A stretch of DNA of 64,000 bases, taken from assembly GCA_025611195.1 (NCBI GenBank), contig GCA_025611195.1_4718.1. The stretch is one strand, 5' to 3'. The position numbers and the translations under genes are program-made. The notes under the pieces were generated by a model, which saw nothing but the letters and a program-made list of their open reading frames with translations, did no database searches and was not told where the DNA came from. This document shows positions 5,528 through 55,225 of the stretch, in pieces; position 1 is the first letter of the stretch, and the number at the start of each line of letters is the position of its first letter. The DNA comes from a phage.

Positions 5528-5551
5528 CACCTAGGTAATATAGCCGTGAAA
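5528..5551 (-). promoter_or_regulatory. conserved TATATTAC-containing motif (candidate phage promoter)
   Basis: Plus-strand CACCTAGGTAATATAGCCGTGAAA; about 25 nt upstream of ATG 5503 on the minus strand. Confidence 0.45.
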
Positions 5552-5652
5552 AATGTTGGAGTACATCGAATTCCACCACCGCGGCTATTTTATGGGCTAA
5601 GAGCCTAAACCAATCATCTTCGAAATCATCATCTACGAAACAGGAACCTATC

Positions 5653-6474
5653 ATGGATAAAGTATTTGTTTGTAAGCTGTTTACTAATGGCAATAGCCAA
5701 CCGATGTATCTGACCGATCCTGTTCTGGGTAATCGAAACAGCACCGTATTTAAAGAAGCTATCGATTACGCCAAAAACAAAGCCGTGAGAACACTGACGT
5801 CCGATGACTGTATCAATGGTATCACGTGGGCAGAGTTATTCGGCGATGCTGTTAGACACTTCATTCGGGATGCAAGAAAACAGGAAATCAGCCTCACGAC
5901 TATTGTTGTGCGCGAAAACGCAGAAATTTTATCAAACGTTTTGGTTGATTTTAGTGACGTTTACGTGTTTAATCCAGAGAACACTTTTGAACAATACCTT
6001 GCTGCCCTGAACAAACAGCTCGGTAAAGATATTCATCCCGAATTCGCCAAGTTAACGTATCAAGTACTTTTTAACGACGTCGATCCAAATACGAAGATCA
6101 ATACCAGCTTGTCGCCCCTGGTAAAGAAATACGGATCGGTTCTTGCTACAGCAACACCCGCCATCGATGGCGGTTATGATATCGAATTAGATGGTCCATT
6201 AAAAGAACAAGAACCTACTGGGGTTCGGGCAATACACCATACCCTCGTCGTTAAATCCGATGGTTGTGATGAGCATTACGCTATGACAAACGATGAAAAT
6301 AATCACCGTTTAACTCAAGCGATCGGTGTTCTACGTTATACCGAACCAACCACCGTAGACGATTATACTTCGACAACAACGCACACCACGTGTTTCATTT
6401 TCATTTATCCAAATGAAAGTGTGTACATTACTGACTGCTACGGCAACACTGTAGATAGCTTACGTCGTTATTAA
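5653..6474 (+). CDS. hypothetical protein
   Basis: ORF with ATG and AGGA upstream; followed by a UUCG-loop hairpin plus T-run. Confidence 0.55.
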   Translation: MDKVFVCKLFTNGNSQPMYLTDPVLGNRNSTVFKEAIDYAKNKAVRTLTSDDCINGITWAELFGDAVRHFIRDARKQEISLTTIVVRENAEILSNVLVDFSDVYVFNPENTFEQYLAALNKQLGKDIHPEFAKLTYQVLFNDVDPNTKINTSLSPLVKKYGSVLATATPAIDGGYDIELDGPLKEQEPTGVRAIHHTLVVKSDGCDEHYAMTNDENNHRLTQAIGVLRYTEPTTVDDYTSTTTHTTCFIFIYPNESVYITDCYGNTVDSLRRY

Positions 6475-6480
6475 TCATCG

Positions 6481-6505
6481 AGCCTGTCCTTCGGGGCAGG
6501 CTTTT
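6481..6505 (+). terminator. intrinsic terminator with UUCG tetraloop
   Basis: AGCCTGTCC-TTCG-GGGCAGGCT stem-loop followed by TTTTAT, 7 nt after the stop of 5653..6474. Confidence 0.6.
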
Positions 6506-6809
6506 ATGCTGCTAAATATCGGGAATAAGAATTAACAAAATAGGAAAATGGTGTGAATATAACACAAAGGAGGGAGATGATTATGTTACTCATTCTAATG
6601 GAGAGGGCGTTGCTGGCGGGTATATGCGCATTCTCTGTTAAACACGCTGTTGCTATCATGACTGAAGAAAGGCGTAATACGCATAATGTATTACGCTGAA
6701 AACAATGTCTGCATTAGTGTATGACGAGAAATCGTCGAGGCCCCCGTCTTCACGAGGGCCAACACCTATGCGCGACTATTTACCATCTACGAAACAAAGG
6801 GTTATAAAC

Positions 6810-7118
6810 ATGAGCAATTTGAATGTTGAATTTACTTCAACAACGCCTGTCATGAATGGCGTTGGTACTGAAACCAAGATCGTATTAGAACCCATTCCGG
6901 GGTTACGTGATCTCGGCGATTTTTACCAACTGATGCCACGTATACGGAAAGCCTTAAACAGCATCGATCTCGATTCTGATAAAGATTTCCAACACGATAC
7001 AGAAAATACCGATCATGTGCTGCTACCATCAGGAGTAGCAAAATTCACCTACACGCAAACATTGAAAGCCTCCGATGGTGAAATCCGTCGTTTTATTGTT
7101 GAAGTAGAAAGCGCATAA
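6810..7118 (+). CDS. hypothetical protein
   Basis: ORF 6705..7118; ATG 6810 has AAAGGG upstream, whereas ATG 6705 lacks an SD and would add a P/S/R-rich extension; start uncertain. Confidence 0.4.
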   Translation: MSNLNVEFTSTTPVMNGVGTETKIVLEPIPGLRDLGDFYQLMPRIRKALNSIDLDSDKDFQHDTENTDHVLLPSGVAKFTYTQTLKASDGEIRRFIVEVESA

Positions 7119-7122
7119 AAAC

Positions 7123-7154
7123 CATCCTCCCAACCCGTCAGGGAAGGGAGGATG
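7123..7154. terminator. conserved two-tier GC hairpin (family copy)
   Basis: CATCCTCCC/GGGAGGATG stem with loop AACCCGTCAGGGAA; between convergent genes. Confidence 0.45.
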
Positions 7155-14158: not shown

Positions 14159-14193
14159 CCTCCTTCCCCGGCCTTGGTGGCTAGGGAAGGAGG
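14159..14193. terminator. GC hairpin (family-like stem, different loop)
   Basis: CCTCCTTCCC/GGGAAGGAGG 10-bp stem; between convergent genes; A-rich run upstream. Confidence 0.45.
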
Positions 14194-14208: not shown

Positions 14209-14598
14209 TTAACGCACTGCGTTCTGGATGATTTCTTTTCCGATCTTAACCAAAGCAGGTATCTGCACAGCGGTTGCGCCTCGATGACGAAACGCGGTCG
14301 TTAACGCGGTATCGATACTCACAGCACGTCCGTGGAGACGATCGAAATAGACTTGCGTGATTGCAGCAGCGTAATCCTTTCGCTGTTTCTTGGTTTGGTT
14401 TAATAGCGCCGCACTATGGCTAACGATGAAGTAAGCGATTAAGAAGAACGCCGCCGACCGCGAACCGGGTAGAAAACCTTGTCGCTTAGGAAGCATCTCA
14501 CAATCGCGAACAGTATTATCGTTCGCGAGCTCATCCATGTCAACGCAGCATAATTTTGCATAGGTGTGGAGATAGTGGGTAAAAGTTGAATTTAACAT
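14209..14598 (-). CDS. small hypothetical protein with one TM helix
   Basis: ORF 14209..14646 trimmed to ATG 14598 (GAGGA upstream). Confidence 0.45.
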   Translation of the reverse strand: MLNSTFTHYLHTYAKLCCVDMDELANDNTVRDCEMLPKRQGFLPGSRSAAFFLIAYFIVSHSAALLNQTKKQRKDYAAAITQVYFDRLHGRAVSIDTALTTAFRHRGATAVQIPALVKIGKEIIQNAVR

Positions 14599-14704
14599 GT
14601 TTCTTTCCTCGATTACAATGAGTTCAATGTATAGCTTAAACGTCACAGAACGACGTGTAGCGATTTGTTTTAATTTCTAAGGGGTTTCCTTATCTAAGAT
14701 TGAT

Positions 14705-15067
14705 TTAAAGCGTTCTGAAGAGTTCTGTATCGTTCTCGTCACGTAAACACGCTTCGTTCAACAATTCAGCTAACAACTTCGACCGAACTTCAACAAATGT
14801 CCTGAGGCGATGCTTCCATTCTAAACAGACGGTGTATGAACGATCTAACTTTTTGTGCTCGACGATAGATGCCGTGCAGTAGGTTTCGCGTTTATTCACA
14901 TCGTCCCAAACATCACGAATGATCGTCAAGCCTTTCTCAGTACATGTAAACGTTATAACGTAGTGATTGTTCGCTACTTCAACACGAACATCAGTAAATT
15001 CGTTTCGTAACGATGAGGTCTTAGTTAAACGATCAATAGCGAGCGATAAACCAACACGTTGTTGCAT
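14705..15067 (-). CDS. small hypothetical protein
   Basis: ATG 15067 with AGAGGGG upstream. Confidence 0.45.
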   Translation of the reverse strand: MQQRVGLSLAIDRLTKTSSLRNEFTDVRVEVANNHYVITFTCTEKGLTIIRDVWDDVNKRETYCTASIVEHKKLDRSYTVCLEWKHRLRTFVEVRSKLLAELLNEACLRDENDTELFRTL

Positions 15068-15068
15068 A

Positions 15069-15494
15069 TCAGATCCCCTCTTTCAGAATCTCATTAAGGC
15101 CGTCAGTAATCCAGTCGAACTTCGTCTTAATCATAGCTGGGGTCAATCCGTATACTTCCCACACAAGCTGTGGTTTATGTGTTCCATCGTCCAAACAAAG
15201 CACATCGATTGAGAGCATCATACCGCCCGTCAGTTTCATGTTCTCACAACTACGAAGATATGCGGATTCTAGCAATACTTTCCCTAACGCGGTGCAAGCA
15301 AACGTTAACCGGGAAGAATACATGTACGATGAAGTTTTACAGTAGGTTGCTGATATCGGTTGAATATGTTTGCGGAGTTTGGCGTCTTCACGTAAAAGCA
15401 GTAACGTGCGATGTAAACGCGTATGCTCGGTAACCGATGGGCTATATTCACCGATACGCTCTTCGACTACTGATTTAGGCCATTTAATTTCCAT
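15069..15494 (-). CDS. small hypothetical protein (MEIK- N-terminus)
   Basis: ATG with GAGGAAG upstream; abuts neighbouring genes. Confidence 0.45.
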   Translation of the reverse strand: MEIKWPKSVVEERIGEYSPSVTEHTRLHRTLLLLREDAKLRKHIQPISATYCKTSSYMYSSRLTFACTALGKVLLESAYLRSCENMKLTGGMMLSIDVLCLDDGTHKPQLVWEVYGLTPAMIKTKFDWITDGLNEILKEGI

Positions 15495-15509
15495 GTTATC
15501 TTCCTCGTA

Positions 15510-15953
15510 TTAACACTGTGTTCCATTCGATAAGCGGGTGGTATCAAAACGATCCAGTTGGTGTACAATGCTATCAGCAACACGATGCAAATAGTGTATT
15601 TTGTCCATTCGTGAAATCGCAGAAATCGTCCAGCAAGCCTCTGACGTCCAATAGGTGCCGTCTTCACTAAGGCTAACGTTATAAACTAACTTCGTCATCA
15701 CATTTCTCGCCTTATGCTCAGCAGACCAGAATATGTTTTCTAACACATCCTTCCCCGTTTGTGAAAACACGAACCCAAGCTTCACGTCGAAGTCGGATGC
15801 TTCAAGATTAACGCAGTGAAGATGATTCTCTAACGGCGCAAAAGAGGCTAAACGTTCCAGCGCATGTTGCAGTGTGGGATGATCGAGCTTTTCGAGATCA
15901 TCCACAGGTTGTTCAGGTACAATCGCGATCGATTTACAGAATTTAATTTCCAT
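15510..15953 (-). CDS. small hypothetical protein (MEIK- N-terminus, possible paralog of 15069..15494)
   Basis: ATG with AGAGGA upstream; same N-terminal MEIK start and similar length to neighbour. Confidence 0.45.
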   Translation of the reverse strand: MEIKFCKSIAIVPEQPVDDLEKLDHPTLQHALERLASFAPLENHLHCVNLEASDFDVKLGFVFSQTGKDVLENIFWSAEHKARNVMTKLVYNVSLSEDGTYWTSEACWTISAISRMDKIHYLHRVADSIVHQLDRFDTTRLSNGTQC

Positions 15954-16065
15954 GGTAGGTTCCTCTTGATAGTGGTTGATGATAGTAACGGGGACGGCGA
16001 TGTCCCCTTGGTTTCTTATTGCCCCGCCCGAACCCGATGGGGTACAGGCGGGTGATGTTGATGCG

Positions 16066-16473
16066 TTATAGCGGCATCAGACGTTCTTTAAGTTGGGTTA
16101 ACTTATTTGCAACGATGTTCTCAACGCCGATCATCTTGTTCATGTTGTCGAGGGTATCCTGCCAGATGAAAATATCCACGGAACCGGTTCCGACTAACGC
16201 GTTCTCAGGACGATGGTCACGGGTCACGTAGCGTGGTCTCTGCGGGCAGGTTTGTAACTCGATCCAAAGCGCATCTAACGGACCACGGTCCGTGACACCT
16301 AAGGCGAAGAATTCACCTCGTACGACCAGAACATCATCAGCCGTCCTGACGCGGGTTGATCCTTCGTACACCAATTCCATCTTTGCTCGACAGGCTGGGT
16401 TCTCGTTCCACGCCTGGACGGCATCGGCAAGGGCTATTGACGTTGCGGTGGTGTTCGTTTGATCATGTTGCAT
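16066..16473 (-). CDS. small hypothetical protein
   Basis: ATG 16473 with AGGAG upstream. Confidence 0.45.
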   Translation of the reverse strand: MQHDQTNTTATSIALADAVQAWNENPACRAKMELVYEGSTRVRTADDVLVVRGEFFALGVTDRGPLDALWIELQTCPQRPRYVTRDHRPENALVGTGSVDIFIWQDTLDNMNKMIGVENIVANKLTQLKERLMPL

Positions 16474-16550
16474 TCTAAGCTCCTGTAACGCTATCTAAGC
16501 GTCGTTTTAAGTTAAGGTATAGTTTCCCTTCCTTGGGTTCGTTTATTGCG

Positions 16551-16826
16551 TTACACGGCTTTACAGCTTGCGTAAACCACAACTGTTCCGTTGTTGATTG
16601 CCTCAACAACATCCTGGGTCAGTTTGGTCGCGAGTTTATTATCCGCACTCGGTACGTAATAACCTTCCCCTGTTTCAGTGACTAGGCGATAACGTACTAA
16701 TCCTACCGCACGCTCGACGCGTATCACCTTTTCAAGTTTGTATTTGATGATCTTCGTCAGGCTGACGGCGTCTGATGCGTAGATTGCTTTATAAACCTTG
16801 TTCTTTGCTGTCGGTTTCATCAACAT
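16551..16826 (-). CDS. small hypothetical protein
   Basis: ORF 16551..16889 trimmed to ATG 16826 (AAGGA upstream) to avoid overlap with the upstream gene. Confidence 0.4.
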   Translation of the reverse strand: MLMKPTAKNKVYKAIYASDAVSLTKIIKYKLEKVIRVERAVGLVRYRLVTETGEGYYVPSADNKLATKLTQDVVEAINNGTVVVYASCKAV

Positions 16827-16848
16827 GGTTTCTGTTTTCCTTGGTTTA

Positions 16849-17682
16849 TCACGATGCCAGGTCAGCGATATCCCAATGGGTATAACCAACCTCGCGGATG
16901 AGCTCTGCTGTTTCTTCGAACAGTGGGGTAGGGCTAATGACCGGTAACCATTTCCCCTCTCGGGTTATCTTGACTTCGACGGTCTGTAAGTTCGTGTTCC
17001 AACGAACATCATAAACCAGCGCATAGCCAAGAGGATGAACAAGTCCATCTTGGTTAAATGTCTCCAAAAGACCTCGTACGTCTTCTTCGTAGGATGTTTT
17101 CGACAAGACAGCACGTACTCGTCGCAGTCTCTTCGTGATAACCTTTCCCAGCTCGATGCTCTCCCAGCCTGTCATGACGCAAGGATTGTCATCACGACGA
17201 AGAGACCGAGAAATATAAATAGAATCGCTCGCGGTAAGGTGTACCCACCCAAGATCGCAGTATGCGACAGGTCGTGGTGATTCTCCTTCGATAACCGTCG
17301 GTTCATCCAACATCGCCACAACACCGCAGTCTGCGAACTCCGGCGATACTTCATCCAGCATCTTAATACGGCTTTCTTGGCCGGTATGGTCAGGATCAAC
17401 ATGCGCGTAGTAGTAATTAGGCTCTATCGCACGGTATTGCGCAATACGTCTACGGAAGTCAGGATCCTGCATTCCCAGCGGATGGTAATACGCAAGCTGT
17501 TGCTTTATACCATCCTTGATTACCAACAGAAGATCTTCGCGATCTGATGCGGGATCTTCCACCACGATGTATTTAACAATCGCTTTCAGGTTCTTAACGA
17601 TGTTATCCGGAAGTTTCTCGATATCTCGAGCATCGTAGACGCGGTTAACTACAGTGCTTACAAGGTGTTTTGATAGGCTCAT
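16849..17682 (-). CDS. hypothetical protein, paralog of 18039..18821
   Basis: C-terminal VHPLGYALVYDVRWNTNLQTVEVKITREGKWLPVISP aligns with VHPLGFAWVSEVRYNPRKKRVEAKVLNERWLPVVQP of the other gene. Confidence 0.5.
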   Translation of the reverse strand: MSLSKHLVSTVVNRVYDARDIEKLPDNIVKNLKAIVKYIVVEDPASDREDLLLVIKDGIKQQLAYYHPLGMQDPDFRRRIAQYRAIEPNYYYAHVDPDHTGQESRIKMLDEVSPEFADCGVVAMLDEPTVIEGESPRPVAYCDLGWVHLTASDSIYISRSLRRDDNPCVMTGWESIELGKVITKRLRRVRAVLSKTSYEEDVRGLLETFNQDGLVHPLGYALVYDVRWNTNLQTVEVKITREGKWLPVISPTPLFEETAELIREVGYTHWDIADLAS

Positions 17683-17751
17683 CGATGATCTCTCTTTGTT
17701 ATTTCTACCGATAACTCGGCATAAGGGGACAATGATGTCCCCATGTTCATG

Positions 17752-18042
17752 TTAACTCCCTCTGTGGCATGAAAACAGAGCGTCTAATTGCTCCCGTTGT
17801 TCTTTTAAGTATGCGGGAAGCTGGTCTTCCCGTACCGTTCCGATTTCCAACGTGATGTACCAGCGTTGTTCGGAAGCCTGCCATTGAAAACTGCTCTGTA
17901 ACCTCAGGATGTTGGGATCGTGTACCATGCTTGCGCTGTAACGGTTGAACCAATTCAGGTATTCTGCTTTCCCTTCCTCGTCGGCAACGTAACGCTGCAC
18001 GCTGTTCTTCCCTTTGTTCTCGTATCCTGTTGCACGTATCAT
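17752..18042 (-). CDS. small hypothetical protein
   Basis: ORF 17752..18096 trimmed to ATG 18042 (AGGAG upstream, ATGA overlap with upstream stop); an alternative frame 17747..18091 is also open. Confidence 0.4.
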   Translation of the reverse strand: MIRATGYENKGKNSVQRYVADEEGKAEYLNWFNRYSASMVHDPNILRLQSSFQWQASEQRWYITLEIGTVREDQLPAYLKEQREQLDALFSCHRGS

Positions 18043-18821
18043 GCGAACGTTTCTCCTGTAACGTGTTGTGGGCGTTGTAGCATGGTAGCATCCCATTGTA
18101 CGATCCGGCTCCGGCTTACCCGCATCATGATGGATTCATCGTCAAGCCCTGGTTGCACAACCGGTAACCAACGTTCGTTAAGCACCTTCGCTTCAACCCG
18201 TTTCTTGCGTGGGTTGTAACGCACCTCGCTAACCCAAGCGAATCCAAGCGGATGGACCACCCGTGGATAATACATGCGAAGCAATTGATGCATCCGATCC
18301 AGTACCTCCAGGTCAGCATCGGTCAGGTATGGTTTCACCATGGTAAGCTTTTTGGTGTAATACGTTCCGGTGGTATGATTGATCCAACCAGGAAGCACGT
18401 GATGGAACCCTACCTGTAATGGCGTATCCCCGTTCACCTTCAACCAACCGTATCGCCCTGTCGCACGTCCCTCATCGTAAGCAACTTGTGCAAGCTGATC
18501 GATGAACGCACGATCGGTGATCTCGATGCGTTCCACCCGTTCATCCAACGCACCGCGTACCACGAATCCGCTCGCGCTCATCCGCGCAGGATGCTGGCTG
18601 CGATGCGCGTACCAATTCTTGTTGCCGGTAAGCAGGTAAGGGTACGTGTGAGCACCCCGCCAAACAACCGTTCCGTTCGTCCCATCAACACAGTGTACAT
18701 ACATCCCATCTTGACCGTTGTTGTAGCATGCTACCTTCACGCATTCGTTTTGAACATCGCTCGGTAACGCCAGGTATTCACCTTCGGTAAACATGGTATC
18801 AAAAATGATTTCGTCGTTCAT
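18039..18821 (-). CDS. hypothetical protein, paralog of 16849..17682
   Basis: ATG 18821 with AGAGGA upstream; first gene downstream of the AT-rich region. Confidence 0.5.
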   Translation of the reverse strand: MNDEIIFDTMFTEGEYLALPSDVQNECVKVACYNNGQDGMYVHCVDGTNGTVVWRGAHTYPYLLTGNKNWYAHRSQHPARMSASGFVVRGALDERVERIEITDRAFIDQLAQVAYDEGRATGRYGWLKVNGDTPLQVGFHHVLPGWINHTTGTYYTKKLTMVKPYLTDADLEVLDRMHQLLRMYYPRVVHPLGFAWVSEVRYNPRKKRVEAKVLNERWLPVVQPGLDDESIMMRVSRSRIVQWDATMLQRPQHVTGETFA

Positions 18822-19589: not shown

Positions 19590-19602
19590 GGATTAATTAA
19601 AA

Positions 19603-40622: not shown

Positions 40623-40657
40623 CCTTCTCCCCAACCCGATGAGGGAAGGGGAGAAGG
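40623..40657. terminator. conserved two-tier GC hairpin (family copy)
   Basis: CCTTCTCCCC/GGGGAGAAGG stem, loop AACCCGATGAGGGAA; A9 run at 40600..40608; between convergent genes. Confidence 0.45.
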
Positions 40658-40673: not shown

Positions 40674-40952
40674 TTATTTTCGAGAGGTTAACCACGATTC
40701 AATTGCGGTGAGGTTGCATTTCAGTTCACGCCAACTAGGGTGTGGTGGGATCACAGCACCTTTGTCGATTACGGTTAGCTGAACCTGGTACTTCTGTTGC
40801 ATACGCGCTACCGTATCGCTTACCGAGAGGAAAAGCTGGTAACGTTCGTACGCTGTCAGTTCGCGGTCCTGATAAACCGCGTAGGTGGCTAACGTAACTT
40901 CGCGTAAGTCCTTTGCGTCTACAGAGACGGTGATGAGTTTATATTGACTCAT
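40674..40952 (-). CDS. small hypothetical protein
   Basis: 92-aa ORF between hairpin element and the Q/P/Y-rich gene. Confidence 0.45.
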   Translation of the reverse strand: MSQYKLITVSVDAKDLREVTLATYAVYQDRELTAYERYQLFLSVSDTVARMQQKYQVQLTVIDKGAVIPPHPSWRELKCNLTAIESWLTSRK

Positions 40953-41014
40953 ACGGTTTCCTTATCGACTAGGGTATTGCAAACTACAATACCCGTCATC
41001 GGATGATAACTTAA

Positions 41015-43573
41015 TTACTGCTCTTCACGTTCCAACAGATACTCGGAAGCGGTAATACCGTTTACCGTACGTACTGCTTTCAGACGAGTATCATCACTCA
41101 GAATCACGGTAACAGACTGCAGACCTTTTACTTTGGTCTCGAAGGTCTTGAATACCTGATCCAGCATACGAGCAATGCTTGGGTTGGTTGCAGCCGATGC
41201 GTGAGTGTAACCATTCTGGTTCAGCTTCAGAATCTTGGCGTTGGTTGGTACACGAAGAACAACATGCGGACGCATTGCGAACACACTGTGGTTAAACCAG
41301 TAAGCATCGTTACTATCTTCGTCGGTGACGATGTCTGGATTAACACGCATGTCTTCGGTAGCCGCGTCTGCCAAACGACGTTCGATTTCGTCAGCATCCA
41401 GAGAGCCGTCCTTCTCCAGTTCTGCACGATACTCACTCATGGCAACCAGATGACGTTCACGATTCGCTGCAGATTTTTCGTGAGCGGCTTTCAGGTAGTC
41501 ATGCATGTTGTACAGTTCTGCTATGGAAAGACGAATGTTCCACTGACCTTCGCCGTCACGATTGCAGTAGAGACACTTCAGCATGTTGACCCAGGTGTAG
41601 TAGCAATTGGAGAACTCATCTTCAATGAACTTTTGATCCATTTTAAGATCGTGAATCAGCCAACCGGACAGTTCTCCGATATCATCAACGAAGCTAGAGA
41701 TGGTGGTTTCAGAGAAGTTCTTCGGTACGATACGTTTGATCAGCTTGTTAACGTCTTTGGTCATGCTATCGTTCAGGAAATGCCAAATACGCAGAGGGAT
41801 GACGTCACGATACTGTTGCATGATCTGACGATAAGCTTTGATATCGTCGCTACGACCTTTATCAATAGACAACGCGTCCAGGAATTCATGGATAGCATCC
41901 AGCTCTTTGTCGGTATAGGTTCCCAGATAGGAATTGACCGTGGCAAGGAATGCTAATGCGTCGTTTTGGTTGACGTCAGTGTTGGTCTGCTGAATGATCG
42001 CTACTGCAGCTTTGGTTTCAGCATCCTCAACGCTTGACGCTGCGATCGCGTCGGTAACAGTAAACAGTTTCATTTCGCGCTGTTCGCCGACAACGATCGG
42101 TTCACGTTGAATCGGTTTGTTAAGACTAACGCGAACAACTTCTGCTTGCGCGATACGATCCAGTTTTACCATTTCCTGCTCTGCCATACGACGAGCGGTT
42201 GGATCTGATTCAAGTTCGATGTATTCCACTTCTTCCTCCGTGAGGGATGTAATGTCAACAATGGTTTCATGAAGAATTCCGTTTTCGTCGATACGTGCTC
42301 GACGAGCGAAGTGTCTGAAGTCATACAACGTTGGCCAGCGACAATTCGGCGCGTAGTCTTTGGCCTTCAAACGCATCTGCATAAATTCTTCATGTTGAAC
42401 AACACGACCGTAACGCTTAGCATCTTCGGTCGCATCAATTGGATTAACGGTCTTTGTTACCGTAGCGGAACGAGCCGTACGAATGGGTTCCGGTTTAGTC
42501 TGCACAGGTTCAGGTTGAACGGATTTCTGTTGTCCGGCCTTAACATGCCATTCGGGTTCTTCGTACCGTTCAGCAAATTGCTCGGCTGCTGCAAAGATAT
42601 CATTGATGCCACCAATATCTCCTTCTGGGTTCGTCGAATATACCCGTGGTTGCGGTGCCTCATAACGCGGCGCTGCGGTAGCAGGTGCGTCATTAACGAT
42701 AGGATCGTCATCACCAACATCGTACAAACGGTTGAACGCACAATCCTTCGAATCGATATACGATGGAGCTTGTGGTTGGATAACCGTCGGTCGAGGCTGT
42801 GCGCCGTATCCCGGCATTGTTGGAGCCATACCACGCATAACTGCCGGGTTAGGTTGGTATTGTGGTTGTGGGTAGGTTCCACCATACGTGGGATATGCGG
42901 GCTGTTGCGGTTGACCGTACCCACCGCCAACCATCGCATTTGCTTGCGGCCCACGGTAAGTCATCCCCAGTTGCATTACCTGCTGCTTCAGACCACGGGA
43001 CTTCTGCGCTATTTGCGCTAGACTCCCACTTTTATTTAGCTGCGTGTACTTATTCGCGGCTTCCGGGTTAATGCGCGATAATTCAATCGCACGATAATAT
43101 TCCGGGTATTGATTGGCTTCAAAGAGCCAGGTTACGAGGTGATACAGCGCAACTGTGCTCACAGCAGCAGAGACGATCTGGTCGTTGGACGCATTCTGCG
43201 GCATCGGGTTGATGTAAGAGAATACGTTCCAACAACAGTCTTCAACAAGCGATTCCATCATCATATCGTTATTGGTGTAACGTGCGACGAACTCGGTTTG
43301 TATTTTATCCTGTTGGGCGAAGTCTTTCAGGACATTGAAGACGGCTTGACGGATTTTGACGATCGTCGCTTCTTGGGTGATGAAGTTATAGTTCTGCTGA
43401 TATGATGGTTGTTGGTACTGTGGTTGTTGATAGGTGTTATTCGGGTATGCGCCGTACGGTGGTTGCTGGTACTGTTGCTGGCGAACCTGCTCAGCCGCAT
43501 AATTAATCGTGCTCGCATAAGGGTTTTCGCTGTAGCCCATTTGCTGATACATGTTGTTACTGCCATTATACAT
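41015..43573 (-). CDS. large protein with Q/P/Y-rich low-complexity regions
   Basis: 852-aa ORF; N-terminus and a central segment are QQPxYG-type low complexity. Confidence 0.55.
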   Translation of the reverse strand: MYNGSNNMYQQMGYSENPYASTINYAAEQVRQQQYQQPPYGAYPNNTYQQPQYQQPSYQQNYNFITQEATIVKIRQAVFNVLKDFAQQDKIQTEFVARYTNNDMMMESLVEDCCWNVFSYINPMPQNASNDQIVSAAVSTVALYHLVTWLFEANQYPEYYRAIELSRINPEAANKYTQLNKSGSLAQIAQKSRGLKQQVMQLGMTYRGPQANAMVGGGYGQPQQPAYPTYGGTYPQPQYQPNPAVMRGMAPTMPGYGAQPRPTVIQPQAPSYIDSKDCAFNRLYDVGDDDPIVNDAPATAAPRYEAPQPRVYSTNPEGDIGGINDIFAAAEQFAERYEEPEWHVKAGQQKSVQPEPVQTKPEPIRTARSATVTKTVNPIDATEDAKRYGRVVQHEEFMQMRLKAKDYAPNCRWPTLYDFRHFARRARIDENGILHETIVDITSLTEEEVEYIELESDPTARRMAEQEMVKLDRIAQAEVVRVSLNKPIQREPIVVGEQREMKLFTVTDAIAASSVEDAETKAAVAIIQQTNTDVNQNDALAFLATVNSYLGTYTDKELDAIHEFLDALSIDKGRSDDIKAYRQIMQQYRDVIPLRIWHFLNDSMTKDVNKLIKRIVPKNFSETTISSFVDDIGELSGWLIHDLKMDQKFIEDEFSNCYYTWVNMLKCLYCNRDGEGQWNIRLSIAELYNMHDYLKAAHEKSAANRERHLVAMSEYRAELEKDGSLDADEIERRLADAATEDMRVNPDIVTDEDSNDAYWFNHSVFAMRPHVVLRVPTNAKILKLNQNGYTHASAATNPSIARMLDQVFKTFETKVKGLQSVTVILSDDTRLKAVRTVNGITASEYLLEREEQ

Positions 43574-43608
43574 TTCTTACGATCCTTTTTATTTTATTCG
43601 GTTATGTG

Positions 43609-45405
43609 TCAATCGATTATGTCACGATCGTTAATTTCTACAATTTCTTCATCGAATCGACCGACGTCTTTCTTCAAGCCTGCATTTGTTGCTGCAACGT
43701 CATTTGCGATTTGTGGGGTAATGATTAACCGACCGCGTTCATCGATAGGTGCGTACATACTGAACTTCTGACGTCCGGTTGGTTCGGAGTGTGGAAGATT
43801 CAGATAGCTTGCGCAGAACGGGATGGAACCACTCACCAAACGACTCTCGTCAGCCAACGCAGCACCGCCTGCATTTTGGCTCTGGAGAACAACATGCGTG
43901 CTCACTTTGAACAGCATGCAATCGCCCGGTGACTGAATCGATGTTGCCACTTTCTCACGCTTATCACGATTGCTCTGGATATTGAGAATCGCTTCCGTTG
44001 CAACTTGATTGCGCAACGCCTTCTGTACATCGCGATTGGTCATCTCTTTACGGTTGTTCTGTCGTTTACCACGTTCCGTGGTTTTAAGATGGAACCCCAG
44101 TTTAAAGATGCTTTTACGCACATCCTCCATGACGTATTCCAACACCATCAATTCCTTACCGAACATCGTCGTGGTATCAACACGACTCATTTCGATAGTA
44201 ACGTTGTCAATCAGATACGCCATAAATTCGTAGAAGTCGTCGCAAGGAATATTTTCCTGTTTGAACTTCTTCTGTTGAATTTCATCAACGTAAAGATCGA
44301 GACTGTCGATGTGGTGGTTTACATCACGCAACAAACGCGCATCCGCATTGTTGTTATTAAAGATAATCAAACCGAGTAATGTACGCCAATGGTCTGGCGC
44401 ATTAGCGAACTCTTCAACCGGATAGTCTTCCGGGAAACGATCGTAATAACGGTCGATGAGATATAAGAACGCGCCGACAAGGCCAAGAACAATACGTTCC
44501 GTACCTCCACGTCTTACAGCGATTTGAATATCGGGATGTTTATAACGTACAGCGTTAGCGCTACGGCTTTTACCGCTTTTGCTGATACTAAAGCCTTTAG
44601 GAATAACCCCCATGGTGCGATAGATTACCCATTGGTCGCGCGGAAAATCGCGTTCAGCAAGATTCCGTCCGGTGACGGCTTCGACGCCAGCAAAACGTCG
44701 GAAACATTCACCCACCCCATACTTCGCAAAGAGATAGTGACCCAGTGTGGTTACGCTGGTGTGGTTGATGTTGTCACCGTTCACTTTACTTTGTTTGGTA
44801 AGATGATAGATTTGCGACCAGGGTAACGACAGGTAATGACGATAATCGATACCCGTTGGTGTATCATTGCTCAGGAACTGATACGGTGTACGTTTAACCG
44901 TGATTTTGTCACGCGGAAGCATGATGAACGCCATGTCTTTCGTGTAACTGATTACAGGGTCAGCGAGCACTGCACTGAGAATGAAGTTCGCACCACGTAG
45001 ACGCATTTTACCACCCTGACCTACCGCGGGCAATAGGAGAGGATGTCGGATAATGCAGTAGTCCTTTCCTGGTTCGCGGCGGTCACCTGATTCCATCGCA
45101 CCATACCAGCGGAATTCTAGCATCACCATAAACACGTCGGAAGGTGCAAGGTCGAAGGTCAGCTTACCGCTATCCTTCCCTTTGGTTTTCTTTCCTCCGC
45201 TTAAGTAGTGGAACTGTTCGCGGGCCATACAACGACGCAGGCCATGATACACCAGATCCTTAGGTAAACTATCTTTGCTGTTCCGCCAAAGACGATCAAC
45301 ATAGGACTCAACATCTTGCATCTTATCGACGACGATGTTGCGTGCTATCTTCTCGTTCATCTTCGGTGCAAGCTCAGCGACAGCTTTGCAGAATCTAGGA
45401 TCCAT
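43609..45405 (-). CDS. hypothetical protein
   Basis: 598-aa ORF with no internal stops. Confidence 0.55.
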   Translation of the reverse strand: MDPRFCKAVAELAPKMNEKIARNIVVDKMQDVESYVDRLWRNSKDSLPKDLVYHGLRRCMAREQFHYLSGGKKTKGKDSGKLTFDLAPSDVFMVMLEFRWYGAMESGDRREPGKDYCIIRHPLLLPAVGQGGKMRLRGANFILSAVLADPVISYTKDMAFIMLPRDKITVKRTPYQFLSNDTPTGIDYRHYLSLPWSQIYHLTKQSKVNGDNINHTSVTTLGHYLFAKYGVGECFRRFAGVEAVTGRNLAERDFPRDQWVIYRTMGVIPKGFSISKSGKSRSANAVRYKHPDIQIAVRRGGTERIVLGLVGAFLYLIDRYYDRFPEDYPVEEFANAPDHWRTLLGLIIFNNNNADARLLRDVNHHIDSLDLYVDEIQQKKFKQENIPCDDFYEFMAYLIDNVTIEMSRVDTTTMFGKELMVLEYVMEDVRKSIFKLGFHLKTTERGKRQNNRKEMTNRDVQKALRNQVATEAILNIQSNRDKREKVATSIQSPGDCMLFKVSTHVVLQSQNAGGAALADESRLVSGSIPFCASYLNLPHSEPTGRQKFSMYAPIDERGRLIITPQIANDVAATNAGLKKDVGRFDEEIVEINDRDIID

Positions 45406-45444
45406 TACTCACTCCTTTCAGAAAGTTGCTTAAGCAGATTAAAG

Positions 45445-46881
45445 TTACTTTTTCGATGACGTCTTCTCAAGAATCTTGAAAAAGGTCATACCTATACCGA
45501 CAACGGCCGCAGTTATACTCGCAGCGGCTTTCCAAACATCGACGTTACGTTGACGTCGCGCTTCTTCCGCTTCACGTTGTCTTTTTGCCTCTTCATCACG
45601 TCGACGTATCTCAGCAGCAAACTCGTCGTGCTTACGTTTGGCTTCTTCGTCTCGACGACGAAGTTCAGCGACGAATTCTTCATGTTTGCGTTTGGCCTCG
45701 TCATCACGACGTTTTAAATCAGCTTGATAATCTTCGTGTATTTGTCTACGTAGATCATCTTGACGTTTCATTTCGGCTTGGTGTTGTTCCATCCTACGTT
45801 TTGATTCGTCTCTAAGCTGATCGAGTTCGGCTTTGTGTTGTTCATCGCGCAGCTTTGCGTCGGCGCGATGCGCTTCGTGCATCTGTGCGATAACCGCCTT
45901 GTGTTCATCCGCCATACGCCGCATTTCAGCCATCACCCCTTTAAGGGTTTCTTCTGATGACTTACGTTCATAGCTACGCTGGTCGAAATCATTTTTGTAG
46001 GCTTCTTTTTGGATGGGGTCGCGCCAATGCAATGCCGATTCACGTGTCGGAAAAACATTATACTTCCACATCTCTTTTTCCAAATCTTCGACCGGTACGA
46101 AGACGGAGTCGTTATTCCCGAAGGTAACCAACATACCTGGCGCGCCTGCTCCATTCGTTGGTTTTATTTCGAACGCTTTCCCCAGCACGTTAACCCATAG
46201 GCTATACGGATTATGAAAGTCGGGCGGCGTCCAATGGATAGTGAGTTGCGTTCCGAGAATCCGGAAACCCTCTGTCTTTCCTGTCAAGCTCCGCGCACAT
46301 GTTGCGATGTAGGGGTGATCAATCCCTTTCGTAACATGGTCTGCGCTTTTGTATTCTCCTTTAACTTTTACGATTGCCACGTTGATTTGCGCGACATAAA
46401 TAGGTTGATTAAAGTTCAACGTGTTGAGGTCAATTTGACATATCTCATCCAGCGTATCGTACCAGTCTTGCTGGTCTAATAGACGCGGTATTTTCTCTGT
46501 GTTAACGGTGCGATGGATATGCGGTTTCCTTATCGCATAACCGGTGCCGTTTTTAACGCGGAGTATATCCCGACGTCTACCCGCGTAGACGAAGTTTCTG
46601 AATGCACCATTCGCATTAGATATGTCATGGCTGTCAACTATTACAGGACTACGAAATTTTGAACGTCGTACGATCCTGAATGTATTGCCGTCCTCAACTC
46701 TACCAGGAATGTACTGGAACATATTGTCGGAGGTGATAACCAACACGGTATGGCCGGATTCATTAATACATGCCCACCCTAATTCCAGGTCATACAACGG
46801 TTCAGCATAACCGTCAATGCGATATGCGTGCGTACCATCCCACGGTTCGAACGCGGTATCACATATTGGCATGGAGGGCAT
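45445..46881 (-). CDS. coiled-coil protein with tandem RRRDEEAKRKHEEF repeats and C-terminal TM anchor
   Basis: ORF 45445..46887 (TTG) trimmed to ATG 46881 with GGAGG upstream; about three 18-aa charged repeats then hydrophobic AAASITAAVVGIGMTFF. Confidence 0.5.
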   Translation of the reverse strand: MPSMPICDTAFEPWDGTHAYRIDGYAEPLYDLELGWACINESGHTVLVITSDNMFQYIPGRVEDGNTFRIVRRSKFRSPVIVDSHDISNANGAFRNFVYAGRRRDILRVKNGTGYAIRKPHIHRTVNTEKIPRLLDQQDWYDTLDEICQIDLNTLNFNQPIYVAQINVAIVKVKGEYKSADHVTKGIDHPYIATCARSLTGKTEGFRILGTQLTIHWTPPDFHNPYSLWVNVLGKAFEIKPTNGAGAPGMLVTFGNNDSVFVPVEDLEKEMWKYNVFPTRESALHWRDPIQKEAYKNDFDQRSYERKSSEETLKGVMAEMRRMADEHKAVIAQMHEAHRADAKLRDEQHKAELDQLRDESKRRMEQHQAEMKRQDDLRRQIHEDYQADLKRRDDEAKRKHEEFVAELRRRDEEAKRKHDEFAAEIRRRDEEAKRQREAEEARRQRNVDVWKAAASITAAVVGIGMTFFKILEKTSSKK

Positions 46882-47089: not shown

Positions 47090-47119
47090 CCTCCCCCAAC
47101 CCTTACGGGCTGAGGGAGG
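47090..47119 (-). terminator. GC hairpin (family copy, inverted orientation) in capsid-gene 3' region
   Basis: CCTCCC/GGGAGG stem enclosing CCC-TTAC-GGG; a second hairpin CCGGA..TCCGG lies at 47140..47155. Confidence 0.4.
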
Positions 47120-49590: not shown

Positions 49591-50211
49591 TCACAAACGA
49601 CGCAGGCGATAATGGATGGAACGATTGGTGCAATATGAACGGAACAGCGGCAATTGCGCAACTTCCGCAAGACTCATATTAATTCGCAGATGTTCAATAA
49701 CGGCGCTGTAGTTATCAGCAATACGATCGCTCAATAACTCTTCTGCCAATAAAGGAAGACAATCGACAACAATCGCGATCACATCCTCATTAACATAACG
49801 CACCCGAACACTCAACGGACGTTTGTCTGGGCTGTAAGTTGGATCCGCCAAACGACGTTCAATATCACGCGGATAGCTCGTCAGTAAATGGTAATAACCA
49901 TTGTCATAACGATTGATGTACTCACACAGCACATCAACATTCTTCTCCGACGGCAAACCTGTTTCGTCATAGTGATACGCAAACATACCACCAAGTAGGT
50001 TGTTAAGATGTACCGCAGGGTTCGCTTGTTCGTGTTCTTTCGTGATGAAGAAAGGCACGTTTTGGGCTGCGAAATAAAAACCTACATCATTGGGCGATAG
50101 TATGCCGAAAAGACTTTTAGGATCCAACAGCACCTGTAAGTCATCACGCGCATTTCGAATAATCGCGTGTTCTACCCAATTCGGAACGACGAGATATCGG
50201 AGTTCCTTCAT
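49591..50211 (-). CDS. hypothetical protein
   Basis: 206-aa ORF immediately upstream of the capsid gene promoter region. Confidence 0.5.
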   Translation of the reverse strand: MKELRYLVVPNWVEHAIIRNARDDLQVLLDPKSLFGILSPNDVGFYFAAQNVPFFITKEHEQANPAVHLNNLLGGMFAYHYDETGLPSEKNVDVLCEYINRYDNGYYHLLTSYPRDIERRLADPTYSPDKRPLSVRVRYVNEDVIAIVVDCLPLLAEELLSDRIADNYSAVIEHLRINMSLAEVAQLPLFRSYCTNRSIHYRLRRL

Positions 50212-51887: not shown

Positions 51888-51919
51888 CCCTCCTCCAACC
51901 CGTAAGGGAAGGAGGAGGG
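51888..51919. terminator. conserved two-tier GC hairpin (family copy)
   Basis: CCCTCCTCC/GGAGGAGGG stem, loop AACCCGTAAGGGAA; A10 run at 51866..51875; between convergent genes. Confidence 0.45.
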
Positions 51920-51934: not shown

Positions 51935-52261
51935 TTAACTTATCGTCATAAATTCGCTTGGTGAGAATTTCCAACCATTCTCATTGAGAAGTGTGTTGAG
52001 TTTCGCTGCGACGATAAGCCATGCATGCATAGCCGTTATGTCGTATTGGCGATTCACTCGACGTTGGTTTTCGATATTGATTTGCTCCTGTTCAGTGATG
52101 TTTGGATAGAGTGAGATAGCGCTGGGCTTACCCAACGCGCTAGTCATCACCGCAGTACATTCACTGATAATGTTGTTTAAGTGGTAGTTGTATACCGTTC
52201 CACGCATGACGCGATGACGGCATTCGATAATAGCGTCGTAAATGATTTCTCGAGTAATCAT
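51935..52261 (-). CDS. small hypothetical protein
   Basis: 108-aa ORF following a hairpin element. Confidence 0.45.
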   Translation of the reverse strand: MITREIIYDAIIECRHRVMRGTVYNYHLNNIISECTAVMTSALGKPSAISLYPNITEQEQINIENQRRVNRQYDITAMHAWLIVAAKLNTLLNENGWKFSPSEFMTIS

Positions 52262-52267
52262 GATAAC

Positions 52268-52669
52268 TTAAAACATACGTTCGTTTTTAGCACGTGCGGC
52301 CATTACCAGATCGTAGATACCCGCGGTTCGTAAACATTCGTCGTAGTAACGATGTGCGCCTTCCTCAGCCATCCATGATAACCCACGACTATCCGCAACA
52401 ATAACCAATTTGTTATTGTTGAATGCACACACAACACGGTAAGTCGCGTTGTTATTCGGATCGCGAGTGATCAGTTCATAGACACCGTTAACAGGTTTAC
52501 TGAATTCGCCATTTAACGGGACGAGTTCGGTAGTACCTTCAGCAAACGTTACGTTGATCGGAGAAGGATCTTTAGCGATAACAGTATATTCCACATTGTG
52601 TTCTTTACTGGTCATAATGCCGAAGTAAGAACTGATAGGAGAACGCGGTACACTAAGAATATTAAACAT
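52268..52669 (-). CDS. small hypothetical protein
   Basis: ORF 52268..52771 trimmed to ATG 52669 with AAGAGGA upstream. Confidence 0.45.
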   Translation of the reverse strand: MFNILSVPRSPISSYFGIMTSKEHNVEYTVIAKDPSPINVTFAEGTTELVPLNGEFSKPVNGVYELITRDPNNNATYRVVCAFNNNKLVIVADSRGLSWMAEEGAHRYYDECLRTAGIYDLVMAARAKNERMF

Positions 52670-52739
52670 GAAAGTTGTCCTCTTAATTGGATATAAATTG
52701 TTGAGTTTGTGATTGGGAAATGAAAACGTTGTTTCGGTT

Positions 52740-53312
52740 TTAGACGATGAGTGACCAGGTGGTAAGCACACCGCTTGCGAATTCGAGCTTAAGACGTTTA
52801 CCGATAAGTTGTTGTTGAATCATCTTTTCAGTGATACGTCGATCTTGCTGAACCGCTTTATCAAACGCTTCTTTCGCTTCGGCTTGGTAGAAGTTCGTTT
52901 CTTCGTTGTCGTCGATCTCTTCGAGAGCGTCATCGTCGATGTCAGCAAGTTTCACTCGACCGTTTTCATCAGGTTGTTCTGCAGGCTCATTGTCATAAGG
53001 CGTGTCTTTTGTTGGTGCGACACGATGATGCAACTCGACCTGTGTTAACATGATCTCCATCTCACCATCGATAGGGATGATTTCATCGGCGCAGCCGTTT
53101 TCGGTCAGCTCTCGACTTTCCAGTAATGTCGTGGTGACAGAGAACACCTCTTCAACAGGAACCTCATCATCGTCGATAGTGTTAACCGTATTGCTGGTAA
53201 CTTCGGCAACGACCATCAAATCGAATGCGTGAGGATCACCTGGCATTTTGATTCCTGGAAGTTTGTTGAGGTACCAAGGATCGAGAATCATGATTTCTGG
53301 ATTAAACATCAT
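52740..53312 (-). CDS. acidic hypothetical protein
   Basis: 190-aa D/E-rich ORF with GAAAGG upstream of ATG. Confidence 0.45.
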   Translation of the reverse strand: MMFNPEIMILDPWYLNKLPGIKMPGDPHAFDLMVVAEVTSNTVNTIDDDEVPVEEVFSVTTTLLESRELTENGCADEIIPIDGEMEIMLTQVELHHRVAPTKDTPYDNEPAEQPDENGRVKLADIDDDALEEIDDNEETNFYQAEAKEAFDKAVQQDRRITEKMIQQQLIGKRLKLEFASGVLTTWSLIV

Positions 53313-53383
53313 TTTACCTTTCTATGTTAGGTGGATTGCGGATAGAAGAATCAATGCATAAACTAATTTAAGTTTGTTAAGGT

Positions 53384-54286
53384 TTACTTAGCCTTTGAGT
53401 TATGCGGACTAACATGCTGTTGTACTCGTTGGATTGTATCGTAGTACGGGTTAGATTGGTTGAACATGTTGTTGTGTGGGGGATAGCCATATGGCGCATT
53501 TTGCCTTGTTGGTGAGAAACCTTGTTGAGAAGGACGGTTTGAATTAACCGCGAGTACGTAGTAAACCAAATTTTGACGGTCGAATGTTCCTTCGTTTTTG
53601 AAAGTGTCGGCGTAGGCTTTTACCGCTGGAGTGAGCCTATCACCATCGGCTGTAATAATTGTACCGTCTGGGTAAACTTCCCGAACGACGCACCATGTTC
53701 CGATGAGAACATCTTTAGGTGCTGTATTACCATATCCGGTTGTAACGGTAAGGTAAGTATCGAACCCTTCAGAACAACAAGGATGACGATAGATGGGTCC
53801 TGTCATTTCCGTTCTATCGGTATCGCTACATTGTTCTATTGAGAGCGATGATGTGTCGGTTTTGAAATTGTCAAATTCTTTCTTTAAGTCGATTACGGGT
53901 TCTTTCGTATAGTACTTCTTGATTGCTTTGACGTAAAGATCAGGAACGGTTGTCAGCAATCCGTTATACCTGATTCTCAGGTTTTCGAGTAATCCAAAGA
54001 TGCTCGCGCATGCCTGTTCGCGAGGTTTTGTAAGATAAGAGATCCCCTCAGGAACGCTGGGATCTTTGAGAAAGAAGATTGCGTTATTGTCGTTGTGCGA
54101 TGCGTTGAAGAAAACGATTGATTCGATATATACGGAGCATAGGCTGTCATTGGCGTCGTCAGATAACACCCAGATGCACTCATCGGTCGTCTTGTTTAAA
54201 AGTTCTGTTTTGTCGACCAAACGTTGTTTCATTGCGAGGAAATGTGCCTGTTGTTCAGCAGTTAATTCACGATAAATAGTGGTCAT
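53384..54286 (-). CDS. hypothetical protein, paralog of 54372..55145
   Basis: ORF 53384..54364 trimmed to ATG 54286 (AAGGAG upstream); shared segment YRHPCCSEGFDTYLTVTTGYG...WCVVREVYPDGTIIT vs YIHPECHTTYDRYLTITGG...WRMIREIYPDGRIVT. Confidence 0.5.
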   Translation of the reverse strand: MTTIYRELTAEQQAHFLAMKQRLVDKTELLNKTTDECIWVLSDDANDSLCSVYIESIVFFNASHNDNNAIFFLKDPSVPEGISYLTKPREQACASIFGLLENLRIRYNGLLTTVPDLYVKAIKKYYTKEPVIDLKKEFDNFKTDTSSLSIEQCSDTDRTEMTGPIYRHPCCSEGFDTYLTVTTGYGNTAPKDVLIGTWCVVREVYPDGTIITADGDRLTPAVKAYADTFKNEGTFDRQNLVYYVLAVNSNRPSQQGFSPTRQNAPYGYPPHNNMFNQSNPYYDTIQRVQQHVSPHNSKAK

Positions 54287-54371
54287 GTTGGGCTCCTTGA
54301 TTACGATAAGGATGATTGCGGTTTTGTGGGTTTGGTAGGGCCCTAAACAAAGGAACCCTACCAATATTAGG

Positions 54372-55145
54372 TTAATCAGGATCGGCGTAGAAATGGTGAG
54401 GATAGCCGGAGTACGATCCTGCGTTACCGGCTATGGATTCTTTCTGGGAATCGACGACGAGCGCATAGAACTGTCGGGAATTTGTTAGCGTTGAGAAATA
54501 AGCGGAAAGGACTTTTTCATTCAATGCATCACAAGGTAGGCAGGTGCGACCGCAAAACGTCACGATACGGCCGTCAGGATAGATCTCACGAATCATTCTC
54601 CACTCACCGATATCCACTGGTGATGGCGCTGCTACACCACCTGTTATCGTTAAGTAACGATCGTACGTGGTATGGCATTCAGGATGAATATAGATCGGCT
54701 TGTTCGTTTCGACAGGTTCCGAAGTATCTCGACGACTAAGAAGCTCAACGACTTCAAGATAAATCGTTGGTAGATCGCGGAGAATACCGGTGCTACGACG
54801 TTTCTTTGTGATTCGCGGACGAATCTCGTTGAGAGCGTATTCGAGCTTACGTTCAGCTTCGTACGCATCGAGTTTTATCAAGCGACCCGGTTCATCGGAA
54901 TGATCCTGAGTTACGTAAACGAAATACGTGTCGCCTTTTGCAGCGTGAAAGATTCGAGCGACCTTAAATGTTTCTACGGTACGATAACCAAGGCGCGATT
55001 GATTTTCCACAGGAGAAAATATCCAATGCCGTCCTTCGTCAGCCTCAACAATTTCGTTGAAACTATCTGTCTGTTCTGGGACCTGGTAGTCAGCCAGTAA
55101 TGTGTCGAGAGCATCATCAGCCAGTTTGATGTAAATATCTGTCAT
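54372..55145 (-). CDS. hypothetical protein, paralog of 53384..54286
   Basis: ATG 55145 with GAGGA upstream; preceded by the TATATTAC-type motif and a palindrome. Confidence 0.5.
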   Translation of the reverse strand: MTDIYIKLADDALDTLLADYQVPEQTDSFNEIVEADEGRHWIFSPVENQSRLGYRTVETFKVARIFHAAKGDTYFVYVTQDHSDEPGRLIKLDAYEAERKLEYALNEIRPRITKKRRSTGILRDLPTIYLEVVELLSRRDTSEPVETNKPIYIHPECHTTYDRYLTITGGVAAPSPVDIGEWRMIREIYPDGRIVTFCGRTCLPCDALNEKVLSAYFSTLTNSRQFYALVVDSQKESIAGNAGSYSGYPHHFYADPD

Positions 55146-55201
55146 GTTTGTATCCTCGGTTATTAAGAGAAATTTACAGTGATAACAGTAAGCGTTGTTA
55201 T

Positions 55202-55225
55202 CACCTAGGTAATATAGTCGCGAAA
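55202..55225 (-). promoter_or_regulatory. conserved TATATTAC-containing motif (candidate promoter) overlapped by a palindrome
   Basis: Plus-strand CACCTAGGTAATATAGTCGCGAAA; about 57 nt upstream of ATG 55145; inverted repeat GTGATAACA-N8-TGTTATCAC at 55179..55204. Confidence 0.45.

Follow-up and report, generated by a model that had tools for sequence, protein, structure and literature searches.

We analysed a 64,000-nucleotide (nt) stretch of phage DNA (GenBank assembly GCA_025611195.1, contig GCA_025611195.1_4718.1; hereafter the window) in which a repeated element of about 37 nt lies upstream of four minus-strand genes. The analysis suggests that this element is, at all four sites, an early promoter for the virion RNA polymerase (vRNAP) of a Goslar-like jumbo phage, a reading to which we assign a probability of roughly 0.9. 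The element occurs far more often than chance predicts, is co-oriented with the operons that it heads, is retained among relatives of the phage and corresponds to an early promoter of phage phiKZ.

The window is closely related to Escherichia phage vB_EcoM_Goslar (237,307 base pairs), to which positions 22000-40000 (18 kilobases, kb) are 93.5% identical. Elsewhere, blastn alignments cover much of the remaining window at ~89-94% identity, and the window as a whole corresponds approximately to Goslar 234.3-237.3 kb followed by 0-58.6 kb. Identities of 84-96% to the window were obtained for two metagenomic genomes and for several contigs in assemblies of E. coli, Salmonella and Shigella, no sequence found being identical to it. 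The window phage is a Goslar-like, nucleus-forming, phiKZ-like jumbo phage (a chimallivirus) with E. coli as host. It belongs with the phages that have both a virion and a non-virion multisubunit polymerase: a subunit of the non-virion enzyme (nvRNAP) is encoded in the window, while vRNAP genes are assumed from Goslar, whose virions hold five vRNAP subunits, namely gp78, gp196, gp205, gp207 and gp210 (preprint 10.64898/2026.04.21.720040).

A long repeated element in the window and in Goslar

The initial annotation of this DNA had drawn attention to a 12-mer, CACCTAGGTAAT, present three times and thus beyond chance. This is borne out: exact matches stand at plus-strand coordinates 5528, 47032 and 55202, where 0.01 are expected in the window, and none of 100 shuffled sequences reached three. 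For an extended motif, GGTAATATAGYCGYGAAA, both the count of three and the copy at 18912 were right, whereas the other two copies start at 5534 and 55208 and not at 5528 and 55202; the latter are the starts of the overlapping 12-mer, a trivial slip. The bare octamer TATATTAC is not enriched in the window (three copies against 1.9 expected; 32 of 100 shuffles reach three) and, the octamer alone being at chance level, the signal resides in its extended context. Unified into a 25-nt pattern, TTTSRCGNYTAYATTACCTNNNTGA, the motif has four perfect matches against 0.00 expected, all on the minus strand (5527-5551, 18905-18929, 47031-47055 and 55201-55225), and a search of the window allowing up to three mismatches returned no fifth. 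As read on the minus strand, the four sites are TTTCACGGCTATATTACCTAGGTGA; TTTCACGACTATATTACCTTCATGA; TTTGACGCTTACATTACCTAGGTGA; and TTTCGCGACTATATTACCTAGGTGA.

The octamer family TA[TC]ATTAC occurs 23 times in the Goslar genome, 22 of them on the minus strand, and 12 of these occurrences have a long common context. A 39-column matrix was built from the 12 sites, the Goslar sites themselves being scored leave-one-out. They obtained 31-51 bits, the next-best Goslar site 15; the four window sites obtained 42-51 bits and the next-best window site 6, the maximum in 20 random 64-kb sequences being 11. By this matrix the window holds no weaker copies of the motif. The four window elements are the following:

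5527..5563, minus strand: predicted early promoter A, spanning -35 to +2; core TATATTAC at 5535-5542, predicted +1 G at 5528; 50.8 bits
18905..18941, minus strand: predicted early promoter B; core TATATTAC at 18913-18920, predicted +1 G at 18906; 51.1 bits
47031..47067, minus strand: predicted early promoter C; core TACATTAC at 47039-47046, predicted +1 G at 47032; 41.9 bits
55201..55237, minus strand: predicted early promoter D; core TATATTAC at 55209-55216, predicted +1 G at 55202; 47.4 bits

Together, the 12 Goslar and four window sites give the consensus TAaTnCAAaaNNTTTCACGnCTAYATTACCTnnnTG(+1)A. Over its ~37 nt the element comprises three parts: A-rich sequence around -30, TTTCACG around -20 and, from -14 to -7, the core TAYATTAC, followed six bases later by T(-1)G(+1) in 16/16 sites. 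Across the 16 sites no variation is seen at seven of the eight core positions, nor in A(-34), A(-29), G(-17), T(-5), T(-1) and G(+1); in the upstream blocks, TTT at -23 to -21 is found in 14-15 of them, and the two A positions (-29 and -34) in 16/16. The G seven bases after the core is also present in five chimallin promoters of different genera. The TACATTAC core is used by one of the four window sites and by four of the 12 in Goslar.

All 12 Goslar copies of the ~37-nt motif are on the minus strand and precede a minus-strand gene by 25-205 nt; the random orientation relative to genes that had been named as evidence against a promoter role is hence not seen. Their predicted starts are Goslar minus-strand positions 2553, 15053, 43252, 49718, 86691, 113783, 142786, 160777, 166055, 172964, 201930 and 226681. 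In the window (4/4) as in Goslar (12/12), the sites are non-coding, co-oriented with the genes behind them and at the head of an operon, with one Goslar site overlapping an annotated gene, gp047. Behind each window site come a ribosome-binding site and, 25-151 nt downstream, an ATG, then minus-strand genes and a closing hairpin. Direct reading of the sequence confirms the ATG starts previously placed at 5503, 18821, 46881 and 55145, which lie 25, 85, 151 and 57 nt, respectively, downstream of the predicted start. One of the Goslar sites precedes the chimallin gene (chmA, gp246), an early gene (PMC8244752), with a predicted leader of 66 nt.

The Goslar site that overlaps gp047 is situated inside this annotated 62-amino-acid (aa) open reading frame (ORF; 49584-49772), which corresponds to about 55150-55260 of the window and spans promoter D. 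The ORF is probably a spurious call; the conserved ribosome-binding site and ATG are found further downstream. Two marginal Goslar sites of ~15 bits, at 187632 and 151627 on the minus strand, have an upstream half unlike that of the family and share GGAGAT-N10-CCTACATWACCT; both are intergenic, one before an RNA polymerase subunit gene, have no equivalent in the window and may form a separate promoter class.

Among relatives, promoter A, located in the gap between two divergent genes, is kept in Goslar and in two metagenomic (IMG/VR) Goslar-like genomes except for its spacer; site A reads CCTAGG in the window and CTTAAG in three relatives. The Goslar ortholog of promoter B, at 15060, carries the TACATTAC core, and at sites B and D some genomes have TAT and others TAC. 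Promoter C is 100% identical from the A-rich run (about -28) to +8 in five Goslar-like genomes, and the DNA just upstream of this stretch is scrambled in the most distant of them (84-89% identity). Promoter D is kept in six Goslar-like genomes, with different genes behind it. Sites C and D are retained in three further Goslar-like genomes (84-96% identical), in which the flanks and the genes behind change. When an exact 19-nt pattern was compared with 2.9 million viral contigs, 18 matches fell in three Goslar-type genomes and three elsewhere, where ~5 are expected by chance (on a rough estimate of the size of the collection); the three unrelated viral contigs concerned (L012, L013 and L026), with one copy each, about the chance level, were rejected as members.

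Variants proposed on the plus strand did not stand. The strings upstream of the genes at 20643 and 30235 are merely short matches: TACATTAC at 20516 (+) scores -23.7 bits on the family matrix and AATATTAC at 30198 (+) scores -29.0 bits, so that neither is a family member. The gene at 20643 (+) is preceded instead by a different small motif, described below.

Two observations concern individual sites. At the ortholog of site B in the metagenomic genome UViG_3300011560 (L011), a 43-nt insertion duplicates the 3' half of the promoter (TTACCTTCATGATG...). The predicted minus-strand transcripts of D (55146-55202) and B (18822-18906) would carry a hairpin right at +1, which in D is GAUAACA...UGUUAUC (z = -3.6 against shuffles); a shared structure of the 5' leader was rejected as a general feature, there being no such hairpin in A and C.

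Relation to known early promoters and other explanations

Every polymerase-encoding jumbo phage has been described as carrying a motif of this kind, centred at -10, before its early operons (PMC7598289). The consensus is TATATTAC in phiKZ and TTAWTAVAA_HYWTTTRARR_BTATATTACDWHDGTG in 201phi2-1, with close variants in OBP, N1M2 and EL (PMC7058600 Table 2); the resemblance of the window core to a phiKZ-like early consensus, put forward in the initial annotation, is therefore real. The early promoters of 201phi2-1 have conserved -10, -20 and -30 blocks (PMC11512511). In AR9 the element is AAATATATATTAT-(6N)-G+1, and in phiKZ and phiR1-37 transcription likewise starts 6 nt past the element (PMC5312081). 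phiKZ has 32 early promoters, and the primary start site of its gp54 (chimallin) gene, mapped experimentally, carries the early motif (PMC8244752).

The chimallin gene offers a direct comparison. In phiKZ, RAY, PhiPA3 and Proteus phage 10, its ATG is preceded at 62-72 nt by (G)AAAAAAATTT-N-TATATTAC-N6-G, in which PhiPA3 has the core variant TATATCAC; the Goslar chmA site has the same layout at the same 62-72 nt. The Goslar matrix gives these chimallin sites 27.7 (phiKZ), 22.2 (RAY), 7.0 (PhiPA3) and 23.2 bits (Proteus phage 10), and the phiKZ gp54 promoter is the sole match of at least 5 bits in a 4.1-kb locus. Since the Goslar matrix recovers the gp54 promoter, the window motif is, as judged from sequence, the same element as this experimentally mapped early promoter. 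The earlier suggestion of early promoters read by a phage-encoded RNA polymerase is thereby supported by the Goslar-like nature of the phage, by the gp54 match and by the identical layout in 201phi2-1.

The likeness to phiKZ extends to the core octamer, the A-rich and T-rich upstream blocks and the six-base gap to a G start, as seen when the gp54 site GAAAAAAATTTGAGATTTATATTACTAAATTGA and the Goslar chmA site GAAAAAAATTTCAGGGTTATATTACCTAGGTGA, both before chimallin, are placed side by side. In the window and in Goslar, the -20 block is more specific than in phiKZ (TTTCACG, with an invariant G at -17), YT follows the core and TACATTAC is accepted as a core variant. Goslar holds 12 copies in 237 kb against ~30 (28-32) in the 280 kb of phiKZ (Ceyssens 2014, as cited in PMC8244752 and PMC7058600), and the host here is E. 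coli. 201phi2-1 shares the three-part -30/-20/-10 layout and the TATATTAC-N4-GTG ending but differs in the base preferences of its -20 block, and only six promoters were confirmed experimentally in that phage. AR9, OBP, N1M2 and EL (with AAATATATATTAT-(6N)-G+1 in AR9, and ...ATATTATYWWADTG and TACATTATY among the others) are alike in their AT-rich -10 core and the six bases to G, and EL likewise has a TACATTA-type core; unlike those of the window, the cores of these four phages end in T (TATATTAT). AR9 further differs from Goslar-type phages in having no phage nucleus and in its uracil-containing DNA.

Coliphage N4 also reads its early genes from phage-specific promoters with a polymerase carried in the particle. 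The N4 enzyme is a single-subunit polymerase that recognises DNA hairpins, whereas the Goslar enzyme is multisubunit and the promoter described here has no conserved hairpin or paired base changes; the window promoters do not belong to the N4 promoter family.

Three other explanations of the sites were weighed against early promoters for vRNAP. They might be middle or late promoters of the second, non-virion polymerase: they lie among structural genes, C immediately following that for the major capsid protein and D a virion-like one, and middle or late promoters drive part of the non-virion polymerase genes of 201phi2-1 (PMC11512511). We consider this very unlikely, as the motif is that of the phiKZ early class and not the late T(-3)ATG(+1) or the middle A-rich/TACT class (PMC7598289, PMC8244752). 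Positions -3 to -2 are variable or G-rich instead of TA, the start mostly reading nGTG; the late signature TATG is absent at the start site, CATG standing there in two Goslar sites (of 12) and one window site (of four). The same motif moreover precedes chimallin, and vRNAP is reported to transcribe the earliest genes, chmA especially; in Goslar, chmA is transcribed even when nucleus formation is blocked. A role as host sigma-70 promoters, with TATATT serving as a -10 box that equals TATAAT at five of six positions, appears barely conceivable. A scan for a -35 plus a -10 box 16-18 nt apart gave no promoter in any of the four regions, the box lacks a preceding TG extension, the conservation extends over ~37 nt in a pattern unlike that of sigma-70 promoters, and phages of the phiKZ type transcribe without the host polymerase (PMC7598289, PMC13282480).

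The repeat could also have mainly a function other than transcription, either as the site of a phage DNA-binding protein or as the scar of recombination or of a mobile element. Two features would suit such an origin: the 8 bp of ACCTAGGT are palindromic, with the core framed by TCAC...GTGA in many copies, and homology breaks just past the ATG at site D, which makes the promoter a gene-exchange boundary. The palindrome nevertheless varies between copies (spacers CTAGG, TTAAG, CTTCA and TTACG), and copies with an altered TCAC show no matching change in GTGA; with a variable spacer and no paired changes, the dyad or hairpin reading of these two features was dropped. There are no terminal repeats or target duplications, the flanks are unrelated, and strict co-orientation with genes together with a fixed distance to a conserved G suits a promoter. 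We regard a mainly non-promoter role as hardly plausible.

Early promoters for vRNAP remain the preferred explanation, against which several points have to be set. The start sites and the early timing are drawn by analogy for the window phage, and the vRNAP genes lie outside the window, their presence being presumed from its relative Goslar. The 12 Goslar sites are few compared with the 28-32 of phiKZ, and by 5 min after infection Goslar already expresses 175 of its 249 genes (preprint 10.1101/2023.09.20.558163). According to the Goslar preprint, a start site precedes the non-virion polymerase beta' gene, a place at which the matrix has no match. The small number of sites, the many genes on at 5 min and the beta' start without the motif point to other early start signals or to terminator read-through: there must be either long units with read-through of terminators or further early promoters beyond this motif. 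Finally, the Goslar RNA-seq paper places the chmA start '91 nt upstream', a wording too ambiguous for comparison with the predicted 66-nt leader.

If the sites are early promoters, a multisubunit vRNAP packaged in the particle and injected with the DNA would recognise the element without a host sigma factor and initiate at the G, that is at minus-strand positions 5528, 18906, 47032 and 55202. Four leftward operons would then be transcribed, each ended by a conserved hairpin, to yield fast-evolving proteins and one subunit of the second, non-virion polymerase, which would later take over middle and late transcription. The vRNAP would be active inside the early infection vesicle, in which the Goslar early programme runs under chimallin knock-down (preprint 10.1101/2023.09.20.558163). 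Early genes transcribed by vRNAP include nvRNAP subunits (PMC13282480), a set into which the nvRNAP subunit gene of unit C fits.

Operons, closing hairpins and neighbouring features

The units behind the four promoters and the hairpins that close or precede them are the following, leaders being counted from the predicted start:

4847..5503, minus strand: unit A, a single 218-aa gene, homolog of Goslar gp004; 25-nt leader
4810..4843, minus strand: hairpin closing unit A; Goslar has an annotated terminator at the corresponding place, 1841-1862
14209..18821, minus strand: unit B, nine small genes; 85-nt leader
14159..14193, minus strand: hairpin closing unit B
40674..46881, minus strand: unit C, four genes; 151-nt leader
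43609-45405, minus strand: second gene of unit C, non-virion RNA polymerase subunit
40623..40657, minus strand: hairpin closing unit C
51935..55145, minus strand: unit D, five genes; 57-nt leader
51888..51919, minus strand: hairpin closing unit D
47090..47119, minus strand: hairpin ending the upstream major capsid gene, ~23 nt before promoter C begins (47067)
55260..55291, minus strand: hairpin ending the gene upstream of promoter D, ~23 nt before promoter D begins (55237)

Searches of the downstream genes against Pfam, PHROGs and NCBIfam gave no significant family match except for the polymerase subunit. The product of 43609-45405 matches PHIKZ123, chain E of the phiKZ non-virion polymerase structure 7OGP (E = 1.4e-40), and also phrog_2943 'polymerase'.

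Units B and D contain paralogs. In unit B, ORF277 (16849-17682, 277 aa) is carried on an insertion of ~880 nt and has no Goslar counterpart; its paralog is the gene that opens the unit, 18039-18821 (36% identity over 85 aa). The first two genes of unit D (54372-55145 and 53384-54364) are likewise paralogs absent from Goslar, their products of 257 aa and 326 aa having a common C-terminal domain (37% identity, E = 5e-17). The locus behind promoter D holds 0, 2 or 3 such paralogs per relative, at identities from 95% down to 47%, and homologs were found only in Goslar-like contigs. At this site, homology between phages spans the promoter, the leader and the ATG, and then breaks.

A sequence-conserved hairpin is present in nine copies in the window (2975-3006, 7123-7154, 14159-14193, 19558-19589, 31526-31557, 40623-40657, 47090-47119, 51888-51919 and 55260-55291). 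It reads CCYTCYYCC-TT-CCC, loop, GGG-TT-GGRRGARGG, with two T-T mismatches in the stem, and usually has CATA at its 5' flank and TATG at its 3' flank; several of its Goslar counterparts are annotated as terminators. It is inverted in one relative, and its stem is kept by paired changes in another; for the copy at 47090-47119, paired base changes preserve the stem in a Goslar-like contig from a Shigella sonnei assembly (L032). The nine copies probably form a family of two-way terminators like those reported for phiKZ and 201phi2-1. We rejected the combination of hairpin and TATG as a late promoter, because TATG is mirrored by the 5' CATA; a simpler reading of the TATG is as the AT-rich foot of a palindromic terminator that probably works in both directions. 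Scanning the entire window with Rfam returned no known RNA family.

The small intergenic motif upstream of 20643, the third found in this DNA, reads (T/A)GTAAA(A/C)NTTTAC(A/T)GA and is followed 15-35 nt further on by TATATGTA or AAATGTA. It stands at 19495 (-) and 20538 (+) in the window and at 15714, 16761, 81208, 173095, 176761 and 188964 in Goslar; one copy precedes the structural gene at 20643 and another lies ~120 nt upstream of the predicted early promoter of Goslar chimallin. This motif may represent a promoter class for the non-virion polymerase. Upstream of promoter B, an AT-rich non-coding gap of 780 nt (18822-19602), also found in Goslar, contains scattered (A)AGATAAC repeats, AAGATAAC occurring eight times in the window against 2.3 expected, with three copies in the gap. 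The gap also includes an inverted repeat with 20-nt arms (19325-19391) and has no Rfam match.

Meaning for Goslar-type phages

The promoter class itself is well established, reviews describing such a motif in every jumbo phage of this kind (PMC7598289), and conceptually nothing new is added to it here. For Goslar, we found no description of the motif in the genome paper, where promoters are unmentioned, in the RNA-seq preprint or in the reviews consulted.

Goslar-type phages may run their early programme from only about 12 unusually long and nearly invariant promoters that would possibly double as fixed 'landing pads' for the swapping of fast-evolving early genes between phages. We offer this as a speculative and rather doubtful proposal, drawn from the homology at site D, which stops past the ATG, from the 0, 2 or 3 paralogs at that locus and from the paralog gained by unit B. 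T4-type phages have promoter/stem-loop cassettes; if the idea is true, a recombination module made of promoter plus leader would be the virion-polymerase counterpart of these cassettes.

The 16-site consensus could drive reporters expressed solely by the injected polymerase and could guide the design of knock-downs directed against early transcripts, and the genes behind the promoters are flagged as candidates for host takeover or anti-defence. The four early operons of the window and the twelve predicted start points of Goslar thus amount to a testable transcription map for the E. coli model of phage-nucleus and early-vesicle biology.

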